Source: an uncultured Saprospiraceae bacterium (GTDB lineage: Bacteria > Bacteroidota > Bacteroidia > Chitinophagales > Saprospiraceae). Taken from it: a stretch of DNA of 64,000 bases. Shown here in pieces: positions 38,337-55,310 of the stretch; the first letter of the stretch is position 1; each line of letters opens with the position of its first letter. Location: positions 3,208 to 67,207 of the forward strand of contig CALFWZ010000143.1 of NCBI GenBank assembly GCA_937928405.1, in the 5' to 3' direction. The notes under the pieces were generated by a model. That model ran no database searches and was not told where the DNA came from. It saw nothing but the letters and a program-made list of their open reading frames with translations. A program made the translations under genes and the position numbers.

Positions 38337-38879
38337 TTAATCAATCTTTCTCCCTTTGGCAGTTCTGGTTTTTATAGACGTCTTCCTGACTTTTTTCAGA
38401 TCAACCATGAGCGCAGCATATGCACTAGAAGAAGGTGTATAAAAGGGTTTGCCATCATACGTAACGGTCCCTCGGTTTCGCTTCCACTCAGAAGCGAGCA
38501 ATATATAACGATTTCCTGCTTTGGGATTCGGTCCAAACATCAAAAAACGGTCGTCACTCGTCTCAAAACTAACCGCAAAACGCTTTTCTTTAGGCATAAA
38601 AACAAGTACGCCAGGTGTTTTTTTCCGAATGACTATTTCTTCCACTTTTCGTCCATCTACCATCTTTATTTCTCCTCCCTCAATCCTAGAATTTCCTGTC
38701 GAAGCTTCTCGACGTAAGATAACATCGTCGGAAAGATAAAATTGTACTTGTTTTAACTCATCTTCGGTCCAATTATTGCTATCATATAACTGTTGAGTAA
38801 ACGGTGAAAGCCGAGGACTACAACCAGCCACGACAAATAAACTACCAAGCAGAAAGATTAAATATTTTATTTCCTTCAT
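38337..38879 (-). CDS. Hypothetical lipoprotein
   Basis: 180 aa with the lipobox LFVVAGCS. I recognise no family. Confidence 0.45.
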   Translation of the reverse strand: MKEIKYLIFLLGSLFVVAGCSPRLSPFTQQLYDSNNWTEDELKQVQFYLSDDVILRREASTGNSRIEGGEIKMVDGRKVEEIVIRKKTPGVLVFMPKEKRFAVSFETSDDRFLMFGPNPKAGNRYILLASEWKRNRGTVTYDGKPFYTPSSSAYAALMVDLKKVRKTSIKTRTAKGRKID

Positions 38880-39042
38880 GATTTATAATGGGTTTTGAAG
38901 TGAAAATTTGTTATTCTTTAACAGAGAACGAAATATAAAGATCTTTTCACTTCTACGCGCCACTCTTTAACGATACCTTAACGTACAATATTTGTTCGCT
39001 AGGGTTGGTAGAAATTACACAGAATCACCAAATTAATTCACC

Positions 39043-39747
39043 ATGATGAGAAAACACTTTATGCCATCAAAGGTATTATTAAAATCTATTTTTTCCACAC
39101 TTTCATTTATTCTTTTGACAGTACACTCCAAGGCAGAGGTTACGTATGCTTTACCACTTTCGGGAGCCGAATTACAAATCGGAAATATGCTCGAATGGTC
39201 TACTGCTCTAGAGTTAAATAGCGAAAGATTTGTTGTGCAACGATCCTTAGATGGAATCAGCTACGAAGATATTGGTCGAGTGGATGCAGCCGGTCTCTCC
39301 AATGAAGAAAAGCCATATCATTTTATGGATATTGGAATCAACGACCCAAAAGCTTACTATCGACTGAAACAAATTGATGACGACGGAACGACTAGCTACT
39401 CACAAACAGCCCTCGTTCATAAAAAAATGGAAAACAAATTTATGGTCATGTCCATGAGCAGTCCTGAAACAGTCAAAAAATTTGAAGTCGCTATTGATTT
39501 TGCCGAAGAAGGTGTTATTGAGTATCAACTCTGCTCATTGAGTGGTGACAGAATTAAAGAGGTAGAACAATCTGTCAGTCCCGGCTTGAATAGCTTATTT
39601 TTTGACTTAGAAAATGAGCACGAAGGTATTTATAAAATACACATCAAAATGGGCGATGAAGAAGAGTCTCTTATTATCAGAAAAGTTTTGGACGAACTAA
39701 AAAGCAAACCAAATGTTGCTAGTAAAAATGGCGAGATAGGCGGATAA
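39043..39747 (+). CDS. Hypothetical secreted protein
   Basis: Has a signal peptide. The module LEWSTALELNSERFVVQRSLDG...YYRLKQIDDDGTTSYS is also present in the PL7 protein as LRWRTASETNNKGFKIERA...YYRLQQIDMDGRSEFS. Confidence 0.45.
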   Translation: MMRKHFMPSKVLLKSIFSTLSFILLTVHSKAEVTYALPLSGAELQIGNMLEWSTALELNSERFVVQRSLDGISYEDIGRVDAAGLSNEEKPYHFMDIGINDPKAYYRLKQIDDDGTTSYSQTALVHKKMENKFMVMSMSSPETVKKFEVAIDFAEEGVIEYQLCSLSGDRIKEVEQSVSPGLNSLFFDLENEHEGIYKIHIKMGDEEESLIIRKVLDELKSKPNVASKNGEIGG

Positions 39748-39773
39748 TCCCCCGTCTATTTTTCAGTCATTAA

Positions 39774-39807
39774 AGCTCCGGAAGTTACAACTCCCGGGGC
39801 TTTTTTT
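39774..39807 (+). terminator. Rho-independent terminator
   Basis: AGCTCCGG-aagttacaactc-CCGGGGCT followed by 7 T. Confidence 0.7.
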
Positions 39808-39839
39808 AGGCTTAGTGCTTAAATAGAGGGCGGCAAGGG

Positions 39840-40886
39840 TTAATTTAGTACATATGAGATTCCTGCCACGATTAGTGCCAAGATCAATATGAGATTTAGA
39901 ATAAGAAAGAAAAATGAATATAAGATGTTCAATATATACGTGAAATAATATTTTATACTGATTTTTTTAATTGTTGATTTTAAAATTGGTTTAAATAAAA
40001 AAAACATTTGAGAACGATCTCCTGTTTTTAGAAAGGTCAACTGACCTAACTTGTTTAATATTCTAATGAAAAATGGAAGTTTATTTATTTGGAAATTCCA
40101 ATCTCTATCGAAAGTAATAAAGCTATACTTATGCTTTATTTCATCATAGTCAGGTATTTTTTTTGGAAATAAACTCTTAGTTAATTCAATAAATTTTAAA
40201 TAATGTTCTTTATCTATTTTCTTATCGGCGAATTTTACATAAAATAAAACAAATTTTTCAGGCTGATTTAATTTTATTGATTGTTCAACCTCCCAAATCA
40301 AGCCTTTTGAATTACCTAAACTTAAAATAATAAGACTAGTCTTTTCTGCTAATTGAACTACTCTTTCTTGCCAATCTCCTCCTTCTTCAATATAAATTCT
40401 AGAAGCACCAATCTTTTGAAATACTTCATTAGGCGCTCCAATTGCAACAGTAGGCCCAATGTATGTTTTCAGAAAATTAACTAAGATATCCTCCCATTCA
40501 TTATAGGAATCAATTTGTTCATCTATTTTGAATGATCTTAAATATAAACAAAAATTATTCTCTAAGTTTTCTAATAAGAACTCACCATCTTTGCTAATTA
40601 ATTTTCTTCCTATAAGACAAAACTGACCAAATACACCACTTATCAAAAATAAAATGATAAAATAAATTATACATAAAAGACCACCAAAAATATTTGACTT
40701 TGGAATTTGGTAAATTATTTTGAAGGATTCCTCAAAATAAAGAAGGAAAAAAAATAAATATATAAATGAAATTATAATAAGAGTATAGCCAACTAATTTA
40801 TTTTTAATTGGCTTTTCGTTCTTTCTATTCGTCAGAGAAAACAAATGAATAATAGAATTTTCAATATCAAATAAATTGAACTTCAT
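39840..40886 (-). CDS. AT-rich island gene: multi-TM protein with cytoplasmic alpha/beta (TIR/flavodoxin-like) core
   Basis: 348 aa with two N-terminal TM helices and one C-terminal TM helix. The core motifs are CLYLRSFKIDEQ, GPTVAIGAP and SLIILSLGNSKGLIWEVEQ. Codon usage and GC are visibly lower than in the neighbours. Confidence 0.4.
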   Translation of the reverse strand: MKFNLFDIENSIIHLFSLTNRKNEKPIKNKLVGYTLIIISFIYLFFFLLYFEESFKIIYQIPKSNIFGGLLCIIYFIILFLISGVFGQFCLIGRKLISKDGEFLLENLENNFCLYLRSFKIDEQIDSYNEWEDILVNFLKTYIGPTVAIGAPNEVFQKIGASRIYIEEGGDWQERVVQLAEKTSLIILSLGNSKGLIWEVEQSIKLNQPEKFVLFYVKFADKKIDKEHYLKFIELTKSLFPKKIPDYDEIKHKYSFITFDRDWNFQINKLPFFIRILNKLGQLTFLKTGDRSQMFFLFKPILKSTIKKISIKYYFTYILNILYSFFFLILNLILILALIVAGISYVLN

Positions 40887-41088
40887 TTATTGAATTTGTT
40901 TTTTTTCATTGTGCAGAAAGTGTAGTTGCTCACCACAGTAGTCAGAGGTCTCGTCTCGTTAGGTCAGAGAGTTCGCCACTTCTAGCTTTTGATAGGTAGC
41001 ATTTGTTGTCTGTTAGTGTGTTAATTAAAACAACACTTTATTGATGACTACTCCCTAAACATATCTCCTCCTCTACTCTAAATACGCT

Positions 41089-41541
41089 TCAAGCCATTTT
41101 TCTACGATCCTGAAAAAATTTAGTCATTAATGTTTTTGATTCCTCCATCATAATACCAAATTCTACTTTCGTTTTTGGATGTAACATCCGTTTACCAAAT
41201 TGCATAAAGCCCCTTTTATCATCGCTTGCCCCGTACACCAATCGATCCAATTGCGCCCACGCCAATGCACCCGCACACATCGCACAAGGTTCTAGGGTTA
41301 CGTAAAGTGTACAATCTTCTAGGTATTTATTGCCCAAATGAGTGGCCGCTGCTGTCAACGCAATAATTTCTGCGTGAGCGGTCACATCCGTGAGTTGCTC
41401 TGTATTATTATGAGCCCGAGCAATGATCCGCTCGTTGCTCACTACCACAGCACCAACAGGTATCTCTCCCAATTCATAAGCTTTCTCTGCCTCCAACAGC
41501 GCTTGGCGCATGAAATAATGATCATCAAATACTTTTATCAT
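41089..41541 (-). CDS. tadA: tRNA adenosine(34) deaminase
   Basis: CDA zinc motifs HAEIIAL and PCAMCAGAL; 150 aa. Confidence 0.9.
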   Translation of the reverse strand: MIKVFDDHYFMRQALLEAEKAYELGEIPVGAVVVSNERIIARAHNNTEQLTDVTAHAEIIALTAAATHLGNKYLEDCTLYVTLEPCAMCAGALAWAQLDRLVYGASDDKRGFMQFGKRMLHPKTKVEFGIMMEESKTLMTKFFQDRRKMA

Positions 41542-48440: not shown

Positions 48441-49034
48441 TTATCTATCAACGCATTAATTTTATTTATCAAAAATCCTGAAAAGGGAAAAGTAAAAACC
48501 CGCTTAGCCAAGACGGTTGGAGATGATCGAGCTTTGGCGATTTATAAAGCCTTACTGGAACATACCCGTAAGTTGACCTTACCGATAGATGTTACGCGCT
48601 TTCTTTTTTATAGTAATAAAATTAATTCCAAGGACGACTGGTCTGCGGAAGATTTTCATAAAGCAGTTCAACACGACGGAGATCTTGGTGATCGCATGAA
48701 AGCAGCCTTTGCCAAAGCATTTGAAAAACATGATCAAGTCTTAATCATTGGCAGTGATTGTGCCAGTCTGACTACCGAAATTGTCAACGAGGGATTTGCT
48801 GCTTTAGCGAATCATGACTTTGTCTTGGGACCTGCGATGGACGGTGGTTATTATTTATTAGGTATGAAAAAATATACTCCTGCCCTGTTTGAAGATATGC
48901 CGTGGAGTACAGAAACGGTCGCACAGATCACCCAAGATCGAATCAAAACAATGGATAAGTCCTGTTTCATTTTGAAGGAGTTAAGTGATATTGATTTTGA
49001 GGAAGATTGGGAAAAGTGGGGATGGGAAATTTAG
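48441..49034 (+). CDS. DUF2064/TIGR04282-family protein (putative nucleotidyl/glycosyltransferase); no canonical start codon for the conserved N-terminus
   Basis: In-frame translation upstream of the track ORF (TTG 48534) gives LSINALILFIKNPEKGKVKTRLAKTVGDDRALAIYKALLEHT, the conserved family N-terminus. A stop lies at 48438-48440, with no ATG/GTG/TTG between 48441 and 48533. Confidence 0.6.
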   Translation, partial: LSINALILFIKNPEKGKVKTRLAKTVGDDRALAIYKALLEHTRKLTLPIDVTRFLFYSNKINSKDDWSAEDFHKAVQHDGDLGDRMKAAFAKAFEKHDQVLIIGSDCASLTTEIVNEGFAALANHDFVLGPAMDGGYYLLGMKKYTPALFEDMPWSTETVAQITQDRIKTMDKSCFILKELSDIDFEEDWEKWGWEI

Positions 49035-49085
49035 GATGGGATGGGAAAACGGTAAAGACAATTCATGAATTGACACTATGTTTTT

Positions 49086-50057
49086 TTAGATAACATCAAT
49101 CCTTGACGGTGGTAACATTCTACTATTGTCATTTCCTATAATTTTAGAATTTTTTAATCTAATTTTAGAAAGTAATCCTTTTGGTGAAAAAAGATATAAC
49201 TCAAACGGAAATGTTCTATTCTCAACACAATTTCTAAGTTCATAGTCCTTATAACGTCGGGCGAAACTAAAAACTCTTTCAACCGAATCATTGGGTGCTA
49301 TAATTATTGATTCATTTTGTGTATTAATAAACTTACCATCTGACAATCTAAAAATATCTCTTAAGGGAAGCGGCATCCTTTCTGATTCTTTTCCTATTTC
49401 TACGAACGCACCAGTTATTGCAATGGGTCTGGTTCCATAATTCTGAATTATAACCTGAAAACCCACAGAACCAACATTTATATCACGGAATGCACAATCA
49501 AAAATTTCAACTCTTTCCTCTTGGATAATATTTTTCCGATCATAATACATCATTTCAATGTCATGCTTGCTTGCGTGTTGAATTGTGGTGCCTTTCCTAA
49601 CCCAGATACAATGTTGAATTTCTTTTTTTAGATTGTTATTTTTATCGAAGGTTTGATAATTCTTTATTATCACGGGTTTTGAAAAAGAAGGAGGAATATG
49701 TATTATACTTAACGTGTTGTTATCAATTATTTCATCATGTATTGTAACATCAAATAAATCGCTACATCTTTTTGCTATAATTCCTTGAATTTCGTTCGAA
49801 TCTTTTAATCCACAATCTGTAAATTTTGCTTCATGATTTTTATTTTCTTCTTCGTCCCATCCAATAATTATTAATCCATCCAGTCCGACCGTATTTACAT
49901 TTGCAGTTATATTTCTTAAAAAATCATTTATTCCTTTTCCACTAGTTAAGTCGAACCACTTTCTTTTAAAGTCAACTTTAGGAAGTTCAACTTTAAGGCC
50001 TAAACTTGATTTTAGGAGGTATTCTCTAGTCTTTCTTATTATCTCTTGTCGTTCCAT
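49086..50057 (-). CDS. AT-rich island gene B: AlbA_2 (Schlafen-type) domain protein with uncharacterised beta-rich C-terminal domain
   Basis: Blocks VDFKRKW, ITANVNTVGLDGLIIIGWDEE, LSIIHIPPSFSKPVIIK and IWVRKGTTIQHASKHDIEMMYY follow the AlbA_2 pattern (E/DFK ... AfaNt.GG.iiiGv ... i.v.ps...P ... vR.gs.t..a). The C-terminal half is unassigned. Confidence 0.55.
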   Translation of the reverse strand: MERQEIIRKTREYLLKSSLGLKVELPKVDFKRKWFDLTSGKGINDFLRNITANVNTVGLDGLIIIGWDEEENKNHEAKFTDCGLKDSNEIQGIIAKRCSDLFDVTIHDEIIDNNTLSIIHIPPSFSKPVIIKNYQTFDKNNNLKKEIQHCIWVRKGTTIQHASKHDIEMMYYDRKNIIQEERVEIFDCAFRDINVGSVGFQVIIQNYGTRPIAITGAFVEIGKESERMPLPLRDIFRLSDGKFINTQNESIIIAPNDSVERVFSFARRYKDYELRNCVENRTFPFELYLFSPKGLLSKIRLKNSKIIGNDNSRMLPPSRIDVI

Positions 50058-50237
50058 TTCGAGTTTTCATTTAATTTTACTATTCTATATTGGTATTGAA
50101 TTTATACAGTTGTCCTAAAAATTAGATTATTTTTTATCATTTTTTTCTTCATATTTATTCTCCCTTATAGATAAAATTTCCATTTTTTTTACTAGTGATT
50201 CATCATCAACAAATTTGTATTCCACCTCATCCTTATA

Positions 50238-51248
50238 TTATGGAATGACGCTTAGAATAAGACTACCTTTTTTATGAAAATCTCGTGCTTTTAATTCCCA
50301 TTCAATTTTTATTTCGTACTCCTTAGGAATTGGGATTAGCTCAAGTGAAAAATCTTTTTTATCATTTTGAACAAGAGGTTTATTATCTTGAGGTATGTAT
50401 TTTACTTCATGTTTTTCTACTATTTTTCTTTCTTTAGTATCAAAGCCAAAATTTGGTACTCCTGCAATATATCTTGATTCTTTTATTGGTTTATGTTCTC
50501 CAATAACTCTGAATAGGATATGCCAATCTTCAATCACGACACTCCCTGTATTTCTCATTTCCAAATCAATCTCAGTTATCGCTACATTTGTATTGTTGAA
50601 CATAGAATTGTAAGATTCGGAAAAATTTAGATGCGGACCCAAAAGTCGTGAATGTAAGATTTGTTTATGTAAATTTGATTTTCCTTCATTCAAATAAAAT
50701 TTTCTTACTTTTCTATAAAACGTGGGATAAATAGACTTTTGCATAGCACTCTCTTCTAAAAATATTGCAAAATCAAAGCTATCTTTAAATTGAATGTTAT
50801 TTAAATAAAATTGGTATGTGGTCCTATTTTCTACGATTAGATCTACTATGTCTTCCCAGCAAAATAAAAGAATTTCGAATGATTGATTCTTTCTGTTTTC
50901 AATGTCAAGGAGTCTAATTTCTTTTTCTATTTTAGCGTCTTTATTTGAAGTTGTAGCAAGAATAAAAACTTCTAACTTAGGTTCAAACATTTTTGCCTTT
51001 TTAATTTCTTCTACTATCTCTTTTTTTGTGATTTTGGCATGAGTATATTCATCCTTTCCTTTACATTGAATCCCCCAATAACTTGATTCACCATTTGGAA
51101 TGCCATAAATATCTATTCCGTTTTGATCTTGCCCAGCTCTACCATTTTTTTTTATTTTGTATGGAATATTCCATATTTCACCCCATAACTTCTTGCAGAG
51201 TGTTTCAAAGTCTTGCCAATTTTCTGGCTTAGGTAACTGTTTTTTCAT
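50238..51248 (-). CDS. AT-rich island gene A: Mrr-like PD-(D/E)xK restriction-endonuclease-fold protein with uncharacterised beta-rich C-terminal domain
   Basis: Nuclease motifs in order: WQDFETLCKKLW (E), QNGIDIYG (D), WGIQCKGK (QxK) and VFILATTSN. I prefer the ATG at 51248 (MKKQLPKPENW); the track's start is 51272. Confidence 0.55.
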   Translation of the reverse strand: MKKQLPKPENWQDFETLCKKLWGEIWNIPYKIKKNGRAGQDQNGIDIYGIPNGESSYWGIQCKGKDEYTHAKITKKEIVEEIKKAKMFEPKLEVFILATTSNKDAKIEKEIRLLDIENRKNQSFEILLFCWEDIVDLIVENRTTYQFYLNNIQFKDSFDFAIFLEESAMQKSIYPTFYRKVRKFYLNEGKSNLHKQILHSRLLGPHLNFSESYNSMFNNTNVAITEIDLEMRNTGSVVIEDWHILFRVIGEHKPIKESRYIAGVPNFGFDTKERKIVEKHEVKYIPQDNKPLVQNDKKDFSLELIPIPKEYEIKIEWELKARDFHKKGSLILSVIP

Positions 51249-51487
51249 TTTTATGAATTTCAAAAGACACATTTAAATCTTAATATTCCACTAGCAAATA
51301 TAGAATATGCCCAGAGTCTTTCTAATTTATAACATTGCTAGAAATGGACCTAATGTAAAAAATTAAGGATGGAGAACTGGATTTGTTTCTTTTGAAGAAT
51401 TGTAAAATTTTTTGTCGAATTTTAACGGCGAATATTTGGGACTGTTCAATAAACTGTGTCAAAATAGATTTGAAAATTCAAAAACAA

Positions 51488-52837
51488 TGTCGTGCGAGTT
51501 AAACTTATACTACTTGCAAACGCACTAAGGTTATGGTAATTTTGGTTTCAACATTATTGAGTGCCTAAATTTTACTACTATGAAAGCCTACGATCAAGCA
51601 AAACGAATGGAAGTTATTCGACTATATACCAATGAAGGTTATACGATGTCAAAGATTAGTGAAGAGCTTGATATTTCCTATAACAGTGTGAGAAATTGGA
51701 TCAAAAGGTATAAAGAAAAAGGAGAGGCAGGTTTGATTCCTAACTATTCGTCTGATGGCCGTCCTACTATTTATTCTAAGAAGATAATTGAGAAAGCGAT
51801 AATTTATAAAAAGACACATCCAGAATGGGGTGCACCTTTTATTTTGATCAAATTGAAAGATGACTTTCCTGATTTGGAGCGACCCAAAGCAAGATGGCTA
51901 CAGCAAATTTTTAAAAGAAATGGGTTACAACCAAAAAAGAATAAAATACCTCAACCTACTAATATATGGGCTAACAAGGTATTTGATTGCGTACAAGTAG
52001 ATGCGAAAGAAAAAATGAAAACGGCAGATGGTCAAGATTGCTGTTATCTAAATTTTGTAGATGAATTTTCGGGAAGTGAACTGGACGCTTTTCTTTTTCC
52101 CCTGTGCACAAATTTGTCAAGTATCTCCTAGAATTGCAATCCAATGTGCCTTATATGTGATGCACCGATGGGGACATATAAAATGTTTCCGCTTTGACAA
52201 CGGCCTACCCTTTGGAGATCCGAGACGAGAATGTATGACTCCAAGTGCGCTGCATCTAGTGGCCAGAGGATGTGAGGTAAAATTTAATCCTCCACGATCT
52301 CCAACACGAAATGCTAAAGTAGAAAGGAATCAAGGAACAACAGCCAAATGGGCAGATATCAAGACTTCTGCTAATTTTTCAACATTTTATGAAAATTTAA
52401 GATATGCCGTTATTGTACAGAGAGAAAAATATCCAACTAGAGTATGCAACTATCAGACTCGAATGAAGTATTACCCAGCACTTACCAAAAATCCAAGAAA
52501 ATATAATTCTCTAGATTTTGACAAAATACGAGTCTACAAAAAATTAGCTCAAGGAAAATGGTTCAGAAAGGTATCTTCTCATGGGCAAATCAAAATTTTT
52601 GGAAAAGTTTATCAGGCCGGCTTTAAATATCGGGGCCAATCAATCATAGTTAAATTAATCATTGAAAACGAAAAACCATACTGGCAATGCTACAATCAAA
52701 ATCAGGAACCTATTGCAAAATTATTTGCCGAGAATATTGCTGATGAGTCTTACTATAAACTGCATTAATATATGAAAAATCTATAAGTGACAAATATTTA
52801 ATGCGTTTTAGTCAGTAAAGGTTTAACTCGCACGACA
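51488..52837 (+). mobile_element. IS element (IS481/IS3-superfamily DDE transposase), 1350 bp, with terminal inverted repeats and 5-bp target site duplication
   Basis: Perfect 17-bp IRs: TGTCGTGCGAGTTAAAC at 51488-51504 and its reverse complement at 52821-52837. Flanking direct repeats AACAA lie at 51483-51487 and 52838-52842. Confidence 0.85.
51580..52768 (+). pseudogene. DDE (rve-type) transposase interrupted by a +1 frameshift inside the catalytic core
   Basis: The N-terminal HTH reads YTMSKISEELDISYNSVRNWIKRY. D1 is in VQVDAKE, D2 is in FRFDNGLPF and E is in NAKVERNQG. The frames switch at the T5C4 run at 52093-52102, and removing one base there restores a 395-aa ORF. Confidence 0.8.
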
Positions 52838-52839
52838 AA

Positions 52840-52994
52840 CAACCTCAACTTCAATCTCAATGCCTAAAAATAATTGCATTTAATAAACTGATAATCAGTA
52901 GTTTTAAATTATTTTTTTCACGTTAGCAGAAAAATTGAAGTTGCCCGCCAACTTGTCGGACAGGTTTTTGAGGTTGAGATTGAGGTTAAGGTTG
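52840..52994. repeat. Inverted GAGGTTGAG-type repeat arms around a 107-nt spacer
   Basis: caacctcaacttcaatctcaa (52840-52860) pairs with ttgaggttgagattgaggttaaggttg (52968-52994). The left arm starts at the IS target site. Confidence 0.65.
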
Positions 52995-53043: not shown

Positions 53044-53568
53044 TTACAACTCACCATACATAATCTCTCCTTCCTCATTAGCGTACCTTTCGCGAATCAA
53101 TTCCTTCATTTCCTTACGGGCAAAGAAAATGCGACTCTTAATTGTTCCAAGGGGAGCATCGAGTTTTTGTGAAATTTCTTCGTAAGAATATCCTTTATAA
53201 TACATCAAAAAGGGAATACTGAATTTTTTGTCCAGCTGCTCAATAATTTCGTGAATTTCCTGCATCATAATACTGGATTCACCAGAATTGAAAGCTTGTG
53301 GTTTTTCTGCAAAGATCGACGTGATCTTCTGACCAATATATTTCATAAATCGCTTTTTACGGCGATAGTTATTAATAAAAGTGTTGCGCATAATCGTTTT
53401 GATCCAAGCATTATAGTTGGTTCCACCGCGAAATTTGTCGCGATTTTTCAAAGCCAAAAAGATCGTTTCTTGTACCAAGTCATTCGCATCCTCTTGATTC
53501 TGCGTCAGTCGGTAAGCGAAAGCTTTCAGGCTTGGGTTATTTTCGGTAATTTTATTCGTTATATCCAT
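53044..53568 (-). CDS. ECF-type RNA polymerase sigma-70 family factor (paralog 1)
   Basis: Region 2 reads DLVQETIFLALKNRDKFRGGTNYNAWIKTIMRNTFINNYRR. Region 4 reads YSYEEISQKLDAPLGTIKSRIFFARKEMK. Confidence 0.85.
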   Translation of the reverse strand: MDITNKITENNPSLKAFAYRLTQNQEDANDLVQETIFLALKNRDKFRGGTNYNAWIKTIMRNTFINNYRRKKRFMKYIGQKITSIFAEKPQAFNSGESSIMMQEIHEIIEQLDKKFSIPFLMYYKGYSYEEISQKLDAPLGTIKSRIFFARKEMKELIRERYANEEGEIMYGEL

Positions 53569-53723: not shown

Positions 53724-54470
53724 ATGCGGTACTTTATTGAACTCAGTTATAATGGTACAAATTACTGTGGCTGGCAACGACAACCCCACGATATGTCCGT
53801 CCAGCAAAAGATCGAAGAGTCACTTGCGACGGTTCTACGGAAGGAAACGCCCATCGTCGGTTGTGGCCGAACCGATAGCGGCGTACATGCCAGCCAGTAT
53901 TTTTTGCATTTTGACTACCCAACTCCGCTTCCAGATAACTTTATGAATCGTATGAATAAGGTGTTACCGACCGATATTGCGTTTTACGACCTAAAAGCAG
54001 TAGCCGACGACGCCCATACCCGTTTTGACGCTTCCCGACGAGCTTACCAATATCATATCATTTTTAGAAAGAATCCTTTCCATCAACAAACAAAATATTT
54101 TTTCCCACAATGGAATAAGCTCCATATTGATAAGATGCAAGAAGCGGCTAGTTTGTTGCTTGAGTACTCCGCTTTTTATACTTTTTGTAAATCTAATACA
54201 GAAGTCAAAACCATGAATTGTGATCTCATGGATAGCCACTGGGAAATCCACCCGAACGGCAAAGGGTTAACCTACCATATAGCGGCCAATCGATTTTTGC
54301 GCGGTATGGTGCGTTTGATCGTGGGTATGGGAATAAATGTAGGAATGGGAAAACTAAAGATTGACACCGTGCGGCAGGCACTCGACCGACAAGAACGACT
54401 CACCAAAAGTCTGAGCGTTCCTCCTCATGGATTGTTTTTGACCGAGGTGGAGTATCCAGTGACTACTTAA
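53724..54470 (+). CDS. truA: tRNA pseudouridine(38-40) synthase
   Basis: The N-terminus YFIELSYNGTNYCGWQRQ, the catalytic block GCGRTDSGVHA and RFLRGMVR. Confidence 0.95.
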   Translation: MRYFIELSYNGTNYCGWQRQPHDMSVQQKIEESLATVLRKETPIVGCGRTDSGVHASQYFLHFDYPTPLPDNFMNRMNKVLPTDIAFYDLKAVADDAHTRFDASRRAYQYHIIFRKNPFHQQTKYFFPQWNKLHIDKMQEAASLLLEYSAFYTFCKSNTEVKTMNCDLMDSHWEIHPNGKGLTYHIAANRFLRGMVRLIVGMGINVGMGKLKIDTVRQALDRQERLTKSLSVPPHGLFLTEVEYPVTT

Positions 54471-54473
54471 TCT

Positions 54474-55310
54474 TTATCTTTTTTTATAGTTGGAATTAAA
54501 TCCAAATCTTACAGAAATTCCGGCTTTTGAGAATCCTTGAACAAAGGTTCCTTCAAATACTGTATGATCATTTTTAACGGTTACCTCTCCTTGCACCAAG
54601 GTTCCTAAGCTATAATTAAAAACAAATCCTATCGCCCAGAAAAAACGCTTTTTCAAACCAAGTAATACCTCTGGTCTATATTCTAAGCCTCCTAATAATT
54701 GATTCGTTTGAGGTCCAAAAAAGCTTCTTTCTACCAAAATCGCATCAGAATAGTCTTGGTTTAGAAAATTATCTATACTCGGAAAATCTAGCGGTTCCCA
54801 TTTAGCGGTTGTAGAACCATCTCTAAGAAAAGGAATCTGAAAGGTAGTTACTATGGTATGTTGCAGGAATTGCTTTCCAATAGGATGCTTGTAAGCAAAA
54901 CCAATACTTGGTAATAAATAAAAACTTACAGGACCTCCACTCAAACCAGAAGAAATAGCTTGCCCATGCTTCGTAAAATCAGCGGATGCTTTGAATCTAT
55001 GACCAATTTCATTTGTTCCTGCTCCTATTGAAAAAACAAGAGCCCAGTTATCCTTATTAGGGTTTACAATTTCTGCCGTTATTCCAAACTGATAAGTCAA
55101 GGTGGCTCTTGATCCAGCAACAGAAAAACTATCAATACTCGCCATTGGAAAATCATACCTTACTGGACTTGGTCCATATAACTGCATATCGGCAGATAAT
55201 CGAATATATTTTTTCTTATCTGAAGTTTCTACCTGTGCTTTAACATAACAATAGGAAAAACAAAAAAAGAATAGACATAGCGATTTTAACCAAGTGGAGG
55301 TTTTTTGCAT
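54474..55310 (-). CDS. Predicted outer-membrane beta-barrel protein (hypothetical)
   Basis: Signal peptide, alternating amphipathic strands and the C-terminus GISVRFGFNSNYKKR. Confidence 0.4.
   Translation of the reverse strand: MQKTSTWLKSLCLFFFCFSYCYVKAQVETSDKKKYIRLSADMQLYGPSPVRYDFPMASIDSFSVAGSRATLTYQFGITAEIVNPNKDNWALVFSIGAGTNEIGHRFKASADFTKHGQAISSGLSGGPVSFYLLPSIGFAYKHPIGKQFLQHTIVTTFQIPFLRDGSTTAKWEPLDFPSIDNFLNQDYSDAILVERSFFGPQTNQLLGGLEYRPEVLLGLKKRFFWAIGFVFNYSLGTLVQGEVTVKNDHTVFEGTFVQGFSKAGISVRFGFNSNYKKR

Follow-up and report, generated by a model that had tools for sequence, protein, structure and literature searches.

Two nuclease genes in an acquired low-GC islet of an uncultured Saprospiraceae bacterium as candidate single-gene defence proteins

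In Mrr proper, a winged-helix DNA-binding domain at the N-terminus precedes the catalytic domain at the C-terminus. Prokaryotic Schlafen proteins (pSlfn) share the signature Ex4(E/D)xK, and in one of them, RorSlfn5 (pSlfn5), an immunoglobulin-like (Ig-like) domain senses the tail-assembly chaperone of phage T5 and the nuclease cuts the anticodon arms of transfer RNAs (tRNAs) (PMC13056530). Swapping the Ig-like domain of RorSlfn5 transfers its specificity (Perez Taboada et al., Nat Microbiol 2026, PMC13056530). More generally, defence systems such as those of short Argonautes exchange SMEK, HNH and Schlafen domains as effectors (PMC10810196). Here, we analysed a stretch of 64,000 nucleotides from an uncultured Saprospiraceae bacterium (contig CALFWZ010000143.1 of assembly GCA_937928405.1, hereafter the window), in which an AT-rich block holds two minus-strand genes, termed A and B. 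Gene A is predicted to encode an Mrr-like nuclease and gene B a Schlafen nuclease. An original prediction, made from the sequence alone, had proposed that both genes may form an uncharacterised two-gene defence system of effector and sensor or, as a fallback, two independent single-gene systems. With a probability of roughly 0.6, we read the block as an acquired low-GC islet that carries two independent candidate single-gene defence proteins, each joining a nuclease to a putative sensor sandwich, and not as a two-gene system.

Both open reading frames (ORFs) lie where the original prediction had placed them, and all peptide motifs quoted in it are present. The features of the two genes are as follows, with lengths in amino acids (aa) and model confidence as predicted local distance difference test (pLDDT).

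49086..50057, minus strand: gene B, complete reading frame of 323 aa for a prokaryotic Schlafen (AlbA_2) nuclease whose C-terminal domain is Ig-like
49527..50057, minus strand: residues 1-177 of B, Schlafen nuclease domain (Pfam PF04326, CbCash profile match, Foldseek, pLDDT >90)
49965..49988, minus strand: catalytic motif of B, E24-LPKV-D29-F-K31 followed by R32 (family alignment, CbCash alignment)
49155..49511, minus strand: residues 183-301 of B, Ig-like beta-sandwich, putative sensor (all-beta in AlphaFold2; Foldseek)
50238..51272, minus strand: gene A ORF, 344 aa
50238..51248, minus strand: gene A from M9, 336 aa, nonsense-truncated, Mrr_cat_2 nuclease with a C-terminal beta-sandwich
50778..51248, minus strand: residues 9-165 of A, PD-(D/E)xK Mrr-like nuclease domain with E23, D54 and Q69-x-K71
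50241..50768, minus strand: residues 169-344 of A, truncated C-terminal beta-sandwich (Ig/Fn3/MG-like, distantly CBM2-like), putative sensor
50238..50240, minus strand: in-frame TAA that ends gene A early, where homologue P0002 has Glu337
50127..50237, minus strand: untranslated remnant of the C-terminal tail of A, 36 codons plus the original stop
50058..50126, minus strand: ancestral spacer between A and B, ~69 bp

Two nucleases, each followed by a beta-sandwich

The nuclease domain of B is supported by sequence and by structure. Residues 27-162 match SLFN_AlbA_2 (PF04326) with an expectation value (E) of 4.7e-7 and 30.8 bits against a Pfam cut-off of 25.3, and PF04326 is found in all of the few relatives of B, 39 clusters retrieved by a word-index search, with lengths of 190-343 aa (mostly 300-330 aa). 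A single solved structure is matched when the family profile is run against the Protein Data Bank (PDB), namely CbCash (9ylu; E 4e-11), and E24, D29, K31 and R32 of B align residue for residue with E17, D22, K24 and R25 of CbCash, mutation of which abolishes tRNA cleavage (PMC13462974). The motif fits the pSlfn signature, with E24 and K31 invariant in the 37 aligned members and position 29 occupied by D in 36 of them and by E in one. In the AlphaFold2 model of B (mean pLDDT 89.7), the nuclease domain, modelled with a pLDDT above 90, adopts the Schlafen-core fold, as its Foldseek matches are the SAMD9 tRNase (9o0d; E 2e-5), SLFN13 (5yd0) and SLFN11 (7fex and 7zel). The C-terminal sandwich resembles arrestin-like Spo0M, the N-domain of TXNIP, GH3 Fn3-like domains, ApaG and integrin. 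Mean pairwise identity within the family is 51% for the nuclease domain and 19% for the sandwich, the contrast of a conserved nuclease with a divergent putative sensor.

On the basis of these alignments and models, B is best filed as a prokaryotic Schlafen protein of the recently characterised class that combines a Schlafen nuclease with an Ig-like domain, and it is a predicted tRNase. By analogy with RorSlfn5, B would be held inactive and switched on when a phage protein binds to its Ig-like domain, whereupon tRNAs would be cleaved by the E24/D29/K31 site, translation would shut down and phage yield would be lowered. The term 'uncharacterised' in the original prediction consequently holds for the A family and no longer for the class of B, in which the pairing of Schlafen nuclease and Ig-like sensor was characterised experimentally in 2025-2026 (PMC13056530).

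The homologues of A are 360-405 aa long and start at the position of M9, at 51248 in the window, which is probably the true start of the gene. Residues 27-149 match Mrr_cat_2 (PF13156) with E 4.3e-5 and a borderline score of 23.9 bits against a cut-off of 22, and 107 out of 119 homologues match the same family at E<=0.01, the best of them at 1.7e-7. Both domain calls of the original prediction are thus above the Pfam gathering scores. The residues that correspond to E23, D54, Q69 and K71 are invariant in 119 out of 119 homologues, and D21 is retained in 118. The structure of A was read from a model of P0002 (79% identical to A, pLDDT 83), where helix 11-26, strands 47-49 and 57-63, helix 75-86 and strand 92-99 follow one another in an order that fits a restriction-endonuclease core. 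Foldseek relates the C-terminal domain to complement MG domains, the Fn3 domain of C5a peptidase, GH3 Fn3-like domains and arrestin (E 1e-5 to 5e-4). Searched against PDB sequences, the family profile finds nothing significant, a chitinase CBM region (6bt9) being matched at E 0.11. As in B, the nuclease is the better conserved part, with a mean pairwise identity of 71% for the N-terminal domain and 41% for the C-terminal one.

Relatives of A are numerous. The word-index search returns 1221 clusters at E<=1e-3, a pattern scan confirms 209 loci in species-representative genomes, and the family comprises ~400 clusters at 50% identity and >1200 at 90% identity. Most loci belong to Bacteroidota, some to Ignavibacteria, Kapaibacteria, Cloacimonadota and Thermodesulfobacteriota, and a few to metagenome-assembled genomes of Firmicutes. 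No description of the family was found in the literature searched on Mrr_cat_2/PF13156 and on Mrr-like nucleases with Ig-like domains, and NCBIfam holds no usable match for A or B. The A family therefore appears to be a large uncharacterised family, mostly from Bacteroidota, in which a predicted Mrr-like nuclease is joined to a sandwich.

The copy of A in the window is interrupted near its 3' end. Reading past the TAA in frame yields YKDEVEYKFVDDESLVKKMEILSIRENKYEEKNDKK*, of which 29 out of 33 residues (88%) are identical to residues 338-370 of P0002, the tail of the closest homologue. This tail is retained by 118 of the 119 aligned family members, so that A in the window is not full length, and the same TAA is present in an independent Logan contig (L001). 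The high identity of the tail remnant indicates that the stop is recent, and it would have arisen by a GAA-to-TAA mutation rather than during long decay. In the P0002 model, the missing tail forms strands 337-347 and 357-362 of the C-terminal sandwich, and three out of four ten-residue blocks over 331-370 average a pLDDT of at least 90. As the last two strands of the sandwich are removed, the window copy is probably inactive. The 180-bp gap that had been noted between the two genes does exist between the ORFs, but it is in part an artefact of the premature stop, the ancestral spacer being the ~69 bp listed above. Besides this stop, the original prediction had overlooked that both proteins end in a sensor-like domain and that the neighbouring insertion sequence (IS) is situated within the inserted block.

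The strongest argument for an immune role of the A family comes from its sandwich. A profile of this domain alone (A7) was searched exhaustively against 1.84 billion representative proteins, which resulted in 402 proteins at E<=1e-3, 49 of them at E<=1e-30. Among the listed representatives of at least 330 aa, 78 out of 86 carry the A-type nuclease. Exceptions with a different N-terminus include the following proteins.

P0381 and P0413: N-terminal SLFN_AlbA_2 with an intact E-x4-(E/D)-x-K (Pfam E 5e-20 and 2e-17); sandwich E 6.6e-21 and 6.7e-18
P0285: N-terminal SMEK_N (Pfam E 8.7e-24); sandwich E 1.6e-56
P0286 and P0306: N-terminal HNH; sandwich E 2.2e-56 and 1.0e-36
P0387 and P0415: N-terminus without a domain match; sandwich E 3.4e-20 and 8.7e-18

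The N-terminus of P0286 matches PDB entry 9om4 ('HNH endonuclease') at E 4.8e-5 and, more weakly, the SAVED-domain proteins 8ysq and 7rwm, which we take to be Cap5 (HNH-SAVED); P0306 shares the HNH motif by eye only. The exceptions without an Mrr-like nuclease bear the whole sandwich, tail included, and the C-terminal domains align across all architectures on the signature P...NxG...W...G...P plus the tail. Because a constant sandwich is combined with alternative nucleases, among them the validated Schlafen effector, these architectures suggest a sensor or regulatory role for the sandwich and an immune role for the A family. Members of the A family would then be DNases of the Mrr-like PD-(D/E)xK type, joined to a shuffled regulatory or sensor module of ~200 residues with a CBM2-like/Ig-like fold. 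A more far-reaching proposal is that the sandwich is a widespread, undescribed phage-sensing module found on at least four nucleases (Mrr-like, Cap5-like HNH, SMEK and Schlafen), with the Mrr-like version as a new single-gene anti-phage family that resembles pSlfn5 but destroys DNA. We put this forward tentatively, at slightly less than even odds.

The core of the A7 profile also matches a CBM_2 repeat protein, which makes the sandwich distantly CBM2-like. In the representative library, the 1788-aa protein P0371, with CBM_2 and DUF11 repeats, contains ten repeats that match the C-terminal domain profile of A. Together with the weak match to 6bt9, these repeats hint that the putative sensor sandwich may descend from carbohydrate-binding sandwiches. 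Homology between the C-terminal domains of A and B was considered and rejected: hhalign gives a probability of 3%, and the weak matches in profile-profile and hidden Markov model comparisons (E 0.001-0.04 in tiny databases) are centred on an 'xNxGxxP/I' strand. Both domains are treated as analogous and not as demonstrably homologous.

The inserted block and its insertion sequence

The block is a recent, horizontally acquired insertion, because it is missing from a strain that is otherwise 99.5% identical. With TruA as a single-copy anchor, three related contigs (L143, L139 and L142) were recovered and compared with the window by blastn. L143 aligns at 99.5% identity over 17.7 kb and lacks 49035-52890, and the same empty arrangement, in which the DUF2064 gene is directly followed by the sigma factor gene, is seen in L139 (~88% identity) and L142 (~81%). 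The alignment of the flanks with these relatives ends at 49034 and resumes at 52891. Horizontal acquisition, as supposed in the original prediction, is hereby borne out, and the neighbouring genes it named (DUF2064, IS, sigma factor and truA) are located as it claimed.

49035..52890, no strand: strain-specific inserted block of 3856 bp that holds gene B, gene A and a nested IS (blastn against L143, L139 and L142)
51273..51487, no strand: region of 215 bp upstream of the gene A ORF, its far end interrupted by the IS
51488..52837, plus strand: IS of 1350 bp with 24-nt terminal inverted repeats (51488-51511 and 52814-52837), single copy in the window
52838..52890, no strand: last 53 bp of the inserted block, past the IS (flank alignment and IS ends)
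48534..49034: DUF2064 gene, left neighbour (Pfam)
53044..53568: sigma factor gene
53724..54470: truA

The composition of the block deviates from its surroundings as well. The G+C content of 49086-51272 is 29.6%, compared to a window mean of 38.0% (standard deviation 2.7%), which places it at the 0.7th percentile and makes it the lowest-GC stretch of 2187 bp within the window; the part left of the IS ORFs (49035-51579) has 29.7%. At third codon positions, the G+C fraction (GC3) is 0.22 for both genes and 0.35 +- 0.04 for 19 background genes. The AT-richness that was noted originally is therefore real, but the quoted contrast of 18% and 38% G+C was overstated, as 60-nt windows in the block average 30% with a minimum of 20% and the DUF2064 gene reaches 40%. 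Presence/absence polymorphism in close relatives thus coincides with deviant composition, as in a genomic island.

The left edge of the block is the base after the stop codon of the DUF2064 gene, and the right edge lies 53 bp past the IS. In place of the block, L143 has 135 bp of intergenic DNA with a long hairpin between the convergent DUF2064 and sigma factor genes. This hairpin (AACCCCTATTATTTCGTAAA...TTTATGAAATAATAGGGGTT at L143:6068-6202) is conserved, with equivalents in L139 and L142, and is probably a bidirectional terminator. It was lost from the window through the insertion, so that the DUF2064 and sigma factor genes may terminate differently there. Flanking direct repeats resembling attachment sites, which would mark site-specific integration, were not found at the block edges. 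A 10-bp direct repeat, GGATGGGAAA, occurs at 49020-49029 and 49039-49048 and spans the left junction 49034/49035; it may represent microhomology at the recombination point. A tRNA scan detected no tRNA genes in the window and no Rfam families were found in or around the block, which speaks against tRNA-linked integration and against a retron-like RNA at this place. A 30-nt inverted pair (80% complementary) of degenerate hexamers (CAACCT CAACTT CAATCT...) occupies 52840-52869 and 52965-52994, with one arm in the final 53 bp of the block and the other in the backbone shared with the island-free strain.

A distance of 215 bp separates the IS from the first ATG of the gene A ORF, and a 5-bp target duplication, AACAA, abuts both ends of the IS at 51483-51487 and 52838-52842; both details had been predicted correctly. 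The inverted repeats of the IS are 92% complementary; no mismatch falls within their outer 17 nt, a sequence without further copies in the window. The IS had been thought to bound the two-gene block. Since 53 bp of the block lie beyond it, it has instead inserted into the block and does not form its edge. The idea that the IS mobilised the block is not supported, as the element occurs once in the window, is flanked by a target duplication of its own and ends 53 bp short of the right edge of the block. It contains a helix-turn-helix ORF (51580-52131) and an overlapping ORF (52061-52768) with a weak match to an integrase core (rve_3, E 0.023). The second ORF is in the +1 frame relative to the first. 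In IS elements with two ORFs, the usual programmed frameshift is -1, and the transposase may be degenerate or unusual. In a promoter and terminator scan that covers sigma-70-type but not Bacteroidota promoters, sigma-70-type sites were no commoner than in shuffled sequences, and no promoter was identified in the 215 bp between the IS and the gene A ORF.

Two further variable segments were observed in the window. Positions 39811-41093 are missing from L142 and lie inside a low-GC patch (38751-40937) that is second-lowest in the window with 31.3%, and this segment looks like another variable insertion. Neither Pfam nor PADLOC gives a match for its 348-aa ORF (39840-40886, minus strand) or for the neighbouring ORFs at 39043-39747 and 38337-38879. 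The segment 54472-55457, just past truA, is present in L143 and missing from L139 and L142, and its 278-aa ORF (54474-55310, minus strand) has no Pfam or PADLOC match either.

Genomic contexts and alternative explanations

The islet is a small variable island in the convergent DUF2064/sigma factor intergenic region, with two genes of the same design, i.e., a conserved N-terminal nuclease effector followed by a fast-diverging C-terminal beta-sandwich that is probably a sensor. The contexts of relatives were inspected for the defence function that we infer. Among the families listed for 150 immediate neighbours of A relatives, N6_N4_Mtase (five members), ResIII, HSDR_N and DUF2971 (three each) and AbiH, AbiGi, Eco57I, Methylase_S and UvrD-type helicases (two each) recur, and the mobile-element markers SSB, RadC and DUF932 are among them as well. 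The 105 neighbours of B relatives include AbiEi/AbiEii, JetD, GmrSD, a type I methyltransferase, PDDEXK_13, XisH and toxin-antitoxin genes. The closest relatives of B (50-53% identical) are located between a DUF6940 gene and an NTP-transferase gene, together with changing toxin-antitoxin modules (BrnT, XisH/XisI). With three A loci and one B locus in IMG/VR, carriage by phages is rare.

Several points count against an islet of two independent defence proteins. Neighbourhood contents cover the best 25 families per scan without a matched control and are to be read qualitatively, and many neighbours of B relatives are housekeeping genes. Neither A nor B matches any of the 5027 PADLOC 2.0 models at E<=1. 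The likeness of B to pSlfn5 is one of architecture, based on sequence and model. The predicted nuclease fold of A draws on a borderline Pfam score and on motif conservation; Foldseek searches of the A model against PDB and BFVD returned generic beta-sandwiches and no restriction-endonuclease fold, the sandwich dominating the match lists and the aligned part never being the nuclease domain. Finally, A and B are co-oriented, were ~69 bp apart ancestrally and stood together in the ancestor of islands that are now ~16% diverged in DNA, which leaves some room for functional coupling in this lineage.

One alternative is that the A family comprises Type IV modification-dependent restriction endonucleases like Mrr, in which the sandwich binds DNA or modified bases. 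Mrr_cat_2 is indeed a restriction-endonuclease family, among the recognisable families listed next to A relatives, those of restriction-modification are the most frequent, and the distant resemblance to CBM2 points to a ligand-binding fold. However, the nuclease of A is N-terminal, in reversed order compared to Mrr, and lacks the winged-helix DNA-binding domain. The same C-terminal domain also occurs on a Schlafen RNase, for which a reader of DNA modifications would be useless, and its fast divergence (41% identity, compared to 71% for the nuclease) is a better fit to an arms race with a protein target than to a fixed chemical mark. We consider this explanation unlikely.

A slightly less probable alternative denies the block a current role in defence: it would be decaying acquired DNA, with A as a pseudogene and B as an AlbA-type nucleic-acid binder that serves regulation or some other purpose outside immunity. 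The early stop in A, the landing of an IS in the block, the lack of a PADLOC match and the public annotation of B relatives as 'AlbA family DNA-binding domain-containing protein' agree with it, as does the observation that 30% of pSlfn genes have no defence neighbour (PMC13056530). Nonetheless, B is full length, confidently modelled and equipped with the complete triad that is invariant in its family. The 88% identity of the tail remnant marks the stop in A as recent, and defence and toxin-antitoxin genes recur in the contexts of both families.

The evidence on a functional pair comes from the loci of relatives and from a sister island. When 80 A loci (+-10 kb) were searched for the B family by tblastn, two showed weak, non-adjacent AlbA_2-like matches, and A relatives occurred in none of 57 B-family loci. 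An adjacent partner was consequently found in 0 out of 80 and 0 out of 57 loci, respectively. Neither family has a conserved neighbour, the best neighbour cluster of A being present in 11 out of 80 loci at a distance of ~2.6 kb. Outside the window, A and B are paired only in the sister island, represented by L144 (Logan ERR9287619) and L145 (ENA ERZ6863577), which carries P0002 as an intact A homologue. It aligns with window positions 49908-51250 at 83.6% nucleotide identity, a span that takes in A with its tail, the spacer and codons 1-45 of the B orthologue. Homology breaks after codon 45 of B and a stop follows, leaving a 46-codon remnant just upstream of a retron gene.

L144:4081-4839 (region downstream of P0002): remnant of the B orthologue, then the gene of a retron type III-A PRTase (PADLOC PDLC02934, E 6.5e-48; Pfam PRTase-CE)

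An ORF of at least 956 aa without a Pfam or PADLOC match lies upstream in L144. The alignment indicates that the A-B pair is ancestral to both islands, which have decayed reciprocally: in L144, B is deleted and A intact, and in the window, A is truncated and B intact. Such losses, which have hit one gene here and the other there, are more in keeping with two independent genes of an islet under rapid turnover than with an obligate pair. A single two-gene system, with one protein as sensor and the other as executor or with both nucleases under the joint control of one operon, is therefore highly improbable, as the common strand, the short ancestral spacer and the persistence of the arrangement through some divergence in the sister island are set against the absence of partners elsewhere, the reciprocal decay and the fact that each protein already has an effector and a putative sensor domain of its own. 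The two-gene reading of the original prediction is thus not supported, and its fallback of two independent single-gene systems is the one that the data support.

Comparison with known systems

As two independent candidate defence proteins, A and B extend what is known in different directions. Gene B would bring Schlafen anti-phage tRNases into Bacteroidota as a compact and intact candidate. The A family is large, unannotated and absent from PADLOC 2.0, and it predicts that the sandwich is a transferable sensor. Little has been charted of the defence repertoire of Bacteroidota, gut and marine groups among them, and a single-gene system that is common in this phylum would matter for phage ecology and phage therapy. 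The locus itself illustrates island turnover, in which DNA is inserted, hit by IS elements and eroded by nonsense mutation, and a retron gene comes in as a replacement.

The A family resembles Mrr and the Mrr_cat_2 (PF13156) Type IV enzymes in the Pfam match of its N-terminal domain and in the E...D...QxK residues that are invariant across the homologues. Unlike Mrr, it has a reversed domain order without a winged helix and a C-terminal sandwich of ~200 residues that is shared with effectors other than DNases, and the window copy is truncated. With short prokaryotic Argonautes and cyclic-oligonucleotide-based anti-phage signalling systems (CBASS), it shares the swapping of effectors on a constant regulatory module (PMC10810196), as HNH, SMEK and Schlafen types occur on the A-type C-terminal domain alongside the Mrr-like nuclease. 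In contrast to those systems, the constant module would be a sandwich within the same polypeptide instead of an APAZ-Argonaute or SAVED domain, and neither a nucleotide signal nor a guide is implied.

For B, CbCash (9ylu) is the closest solved structure to the nuclease by sequence, with the E-D-K triad and the Arg aligned. The two differ in their sensors: Cash has a Csx15 (Rossmann-like) sensor of cyclic tetra-adenylate (cA4) and lies downstream of type III CRISPR (PMC13462974), whereas B has an Ig-like domain and no CRISPR genes are seen among the ORFs flanking the block. Compared to RorSlfn5, B originates from Bacteroidota and is ~50 residues shorter (323 aa versus a 43-kDa protein), and the likeness of the Ig-like domains is one of architecture. 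Like pSlfn5/RorSlfn5, however, B is a single polypeptide of similar size, with an N-terminal Schlafen domain that bears Ex4(E/D)xK at its very N-terminus and a C-terminal Ig-like sandwich. It also shares with pSlfn5 a conserved nuclease, a highly divergent C-terminal domain and occurrence as a solitary gene in variable or defence contexts.

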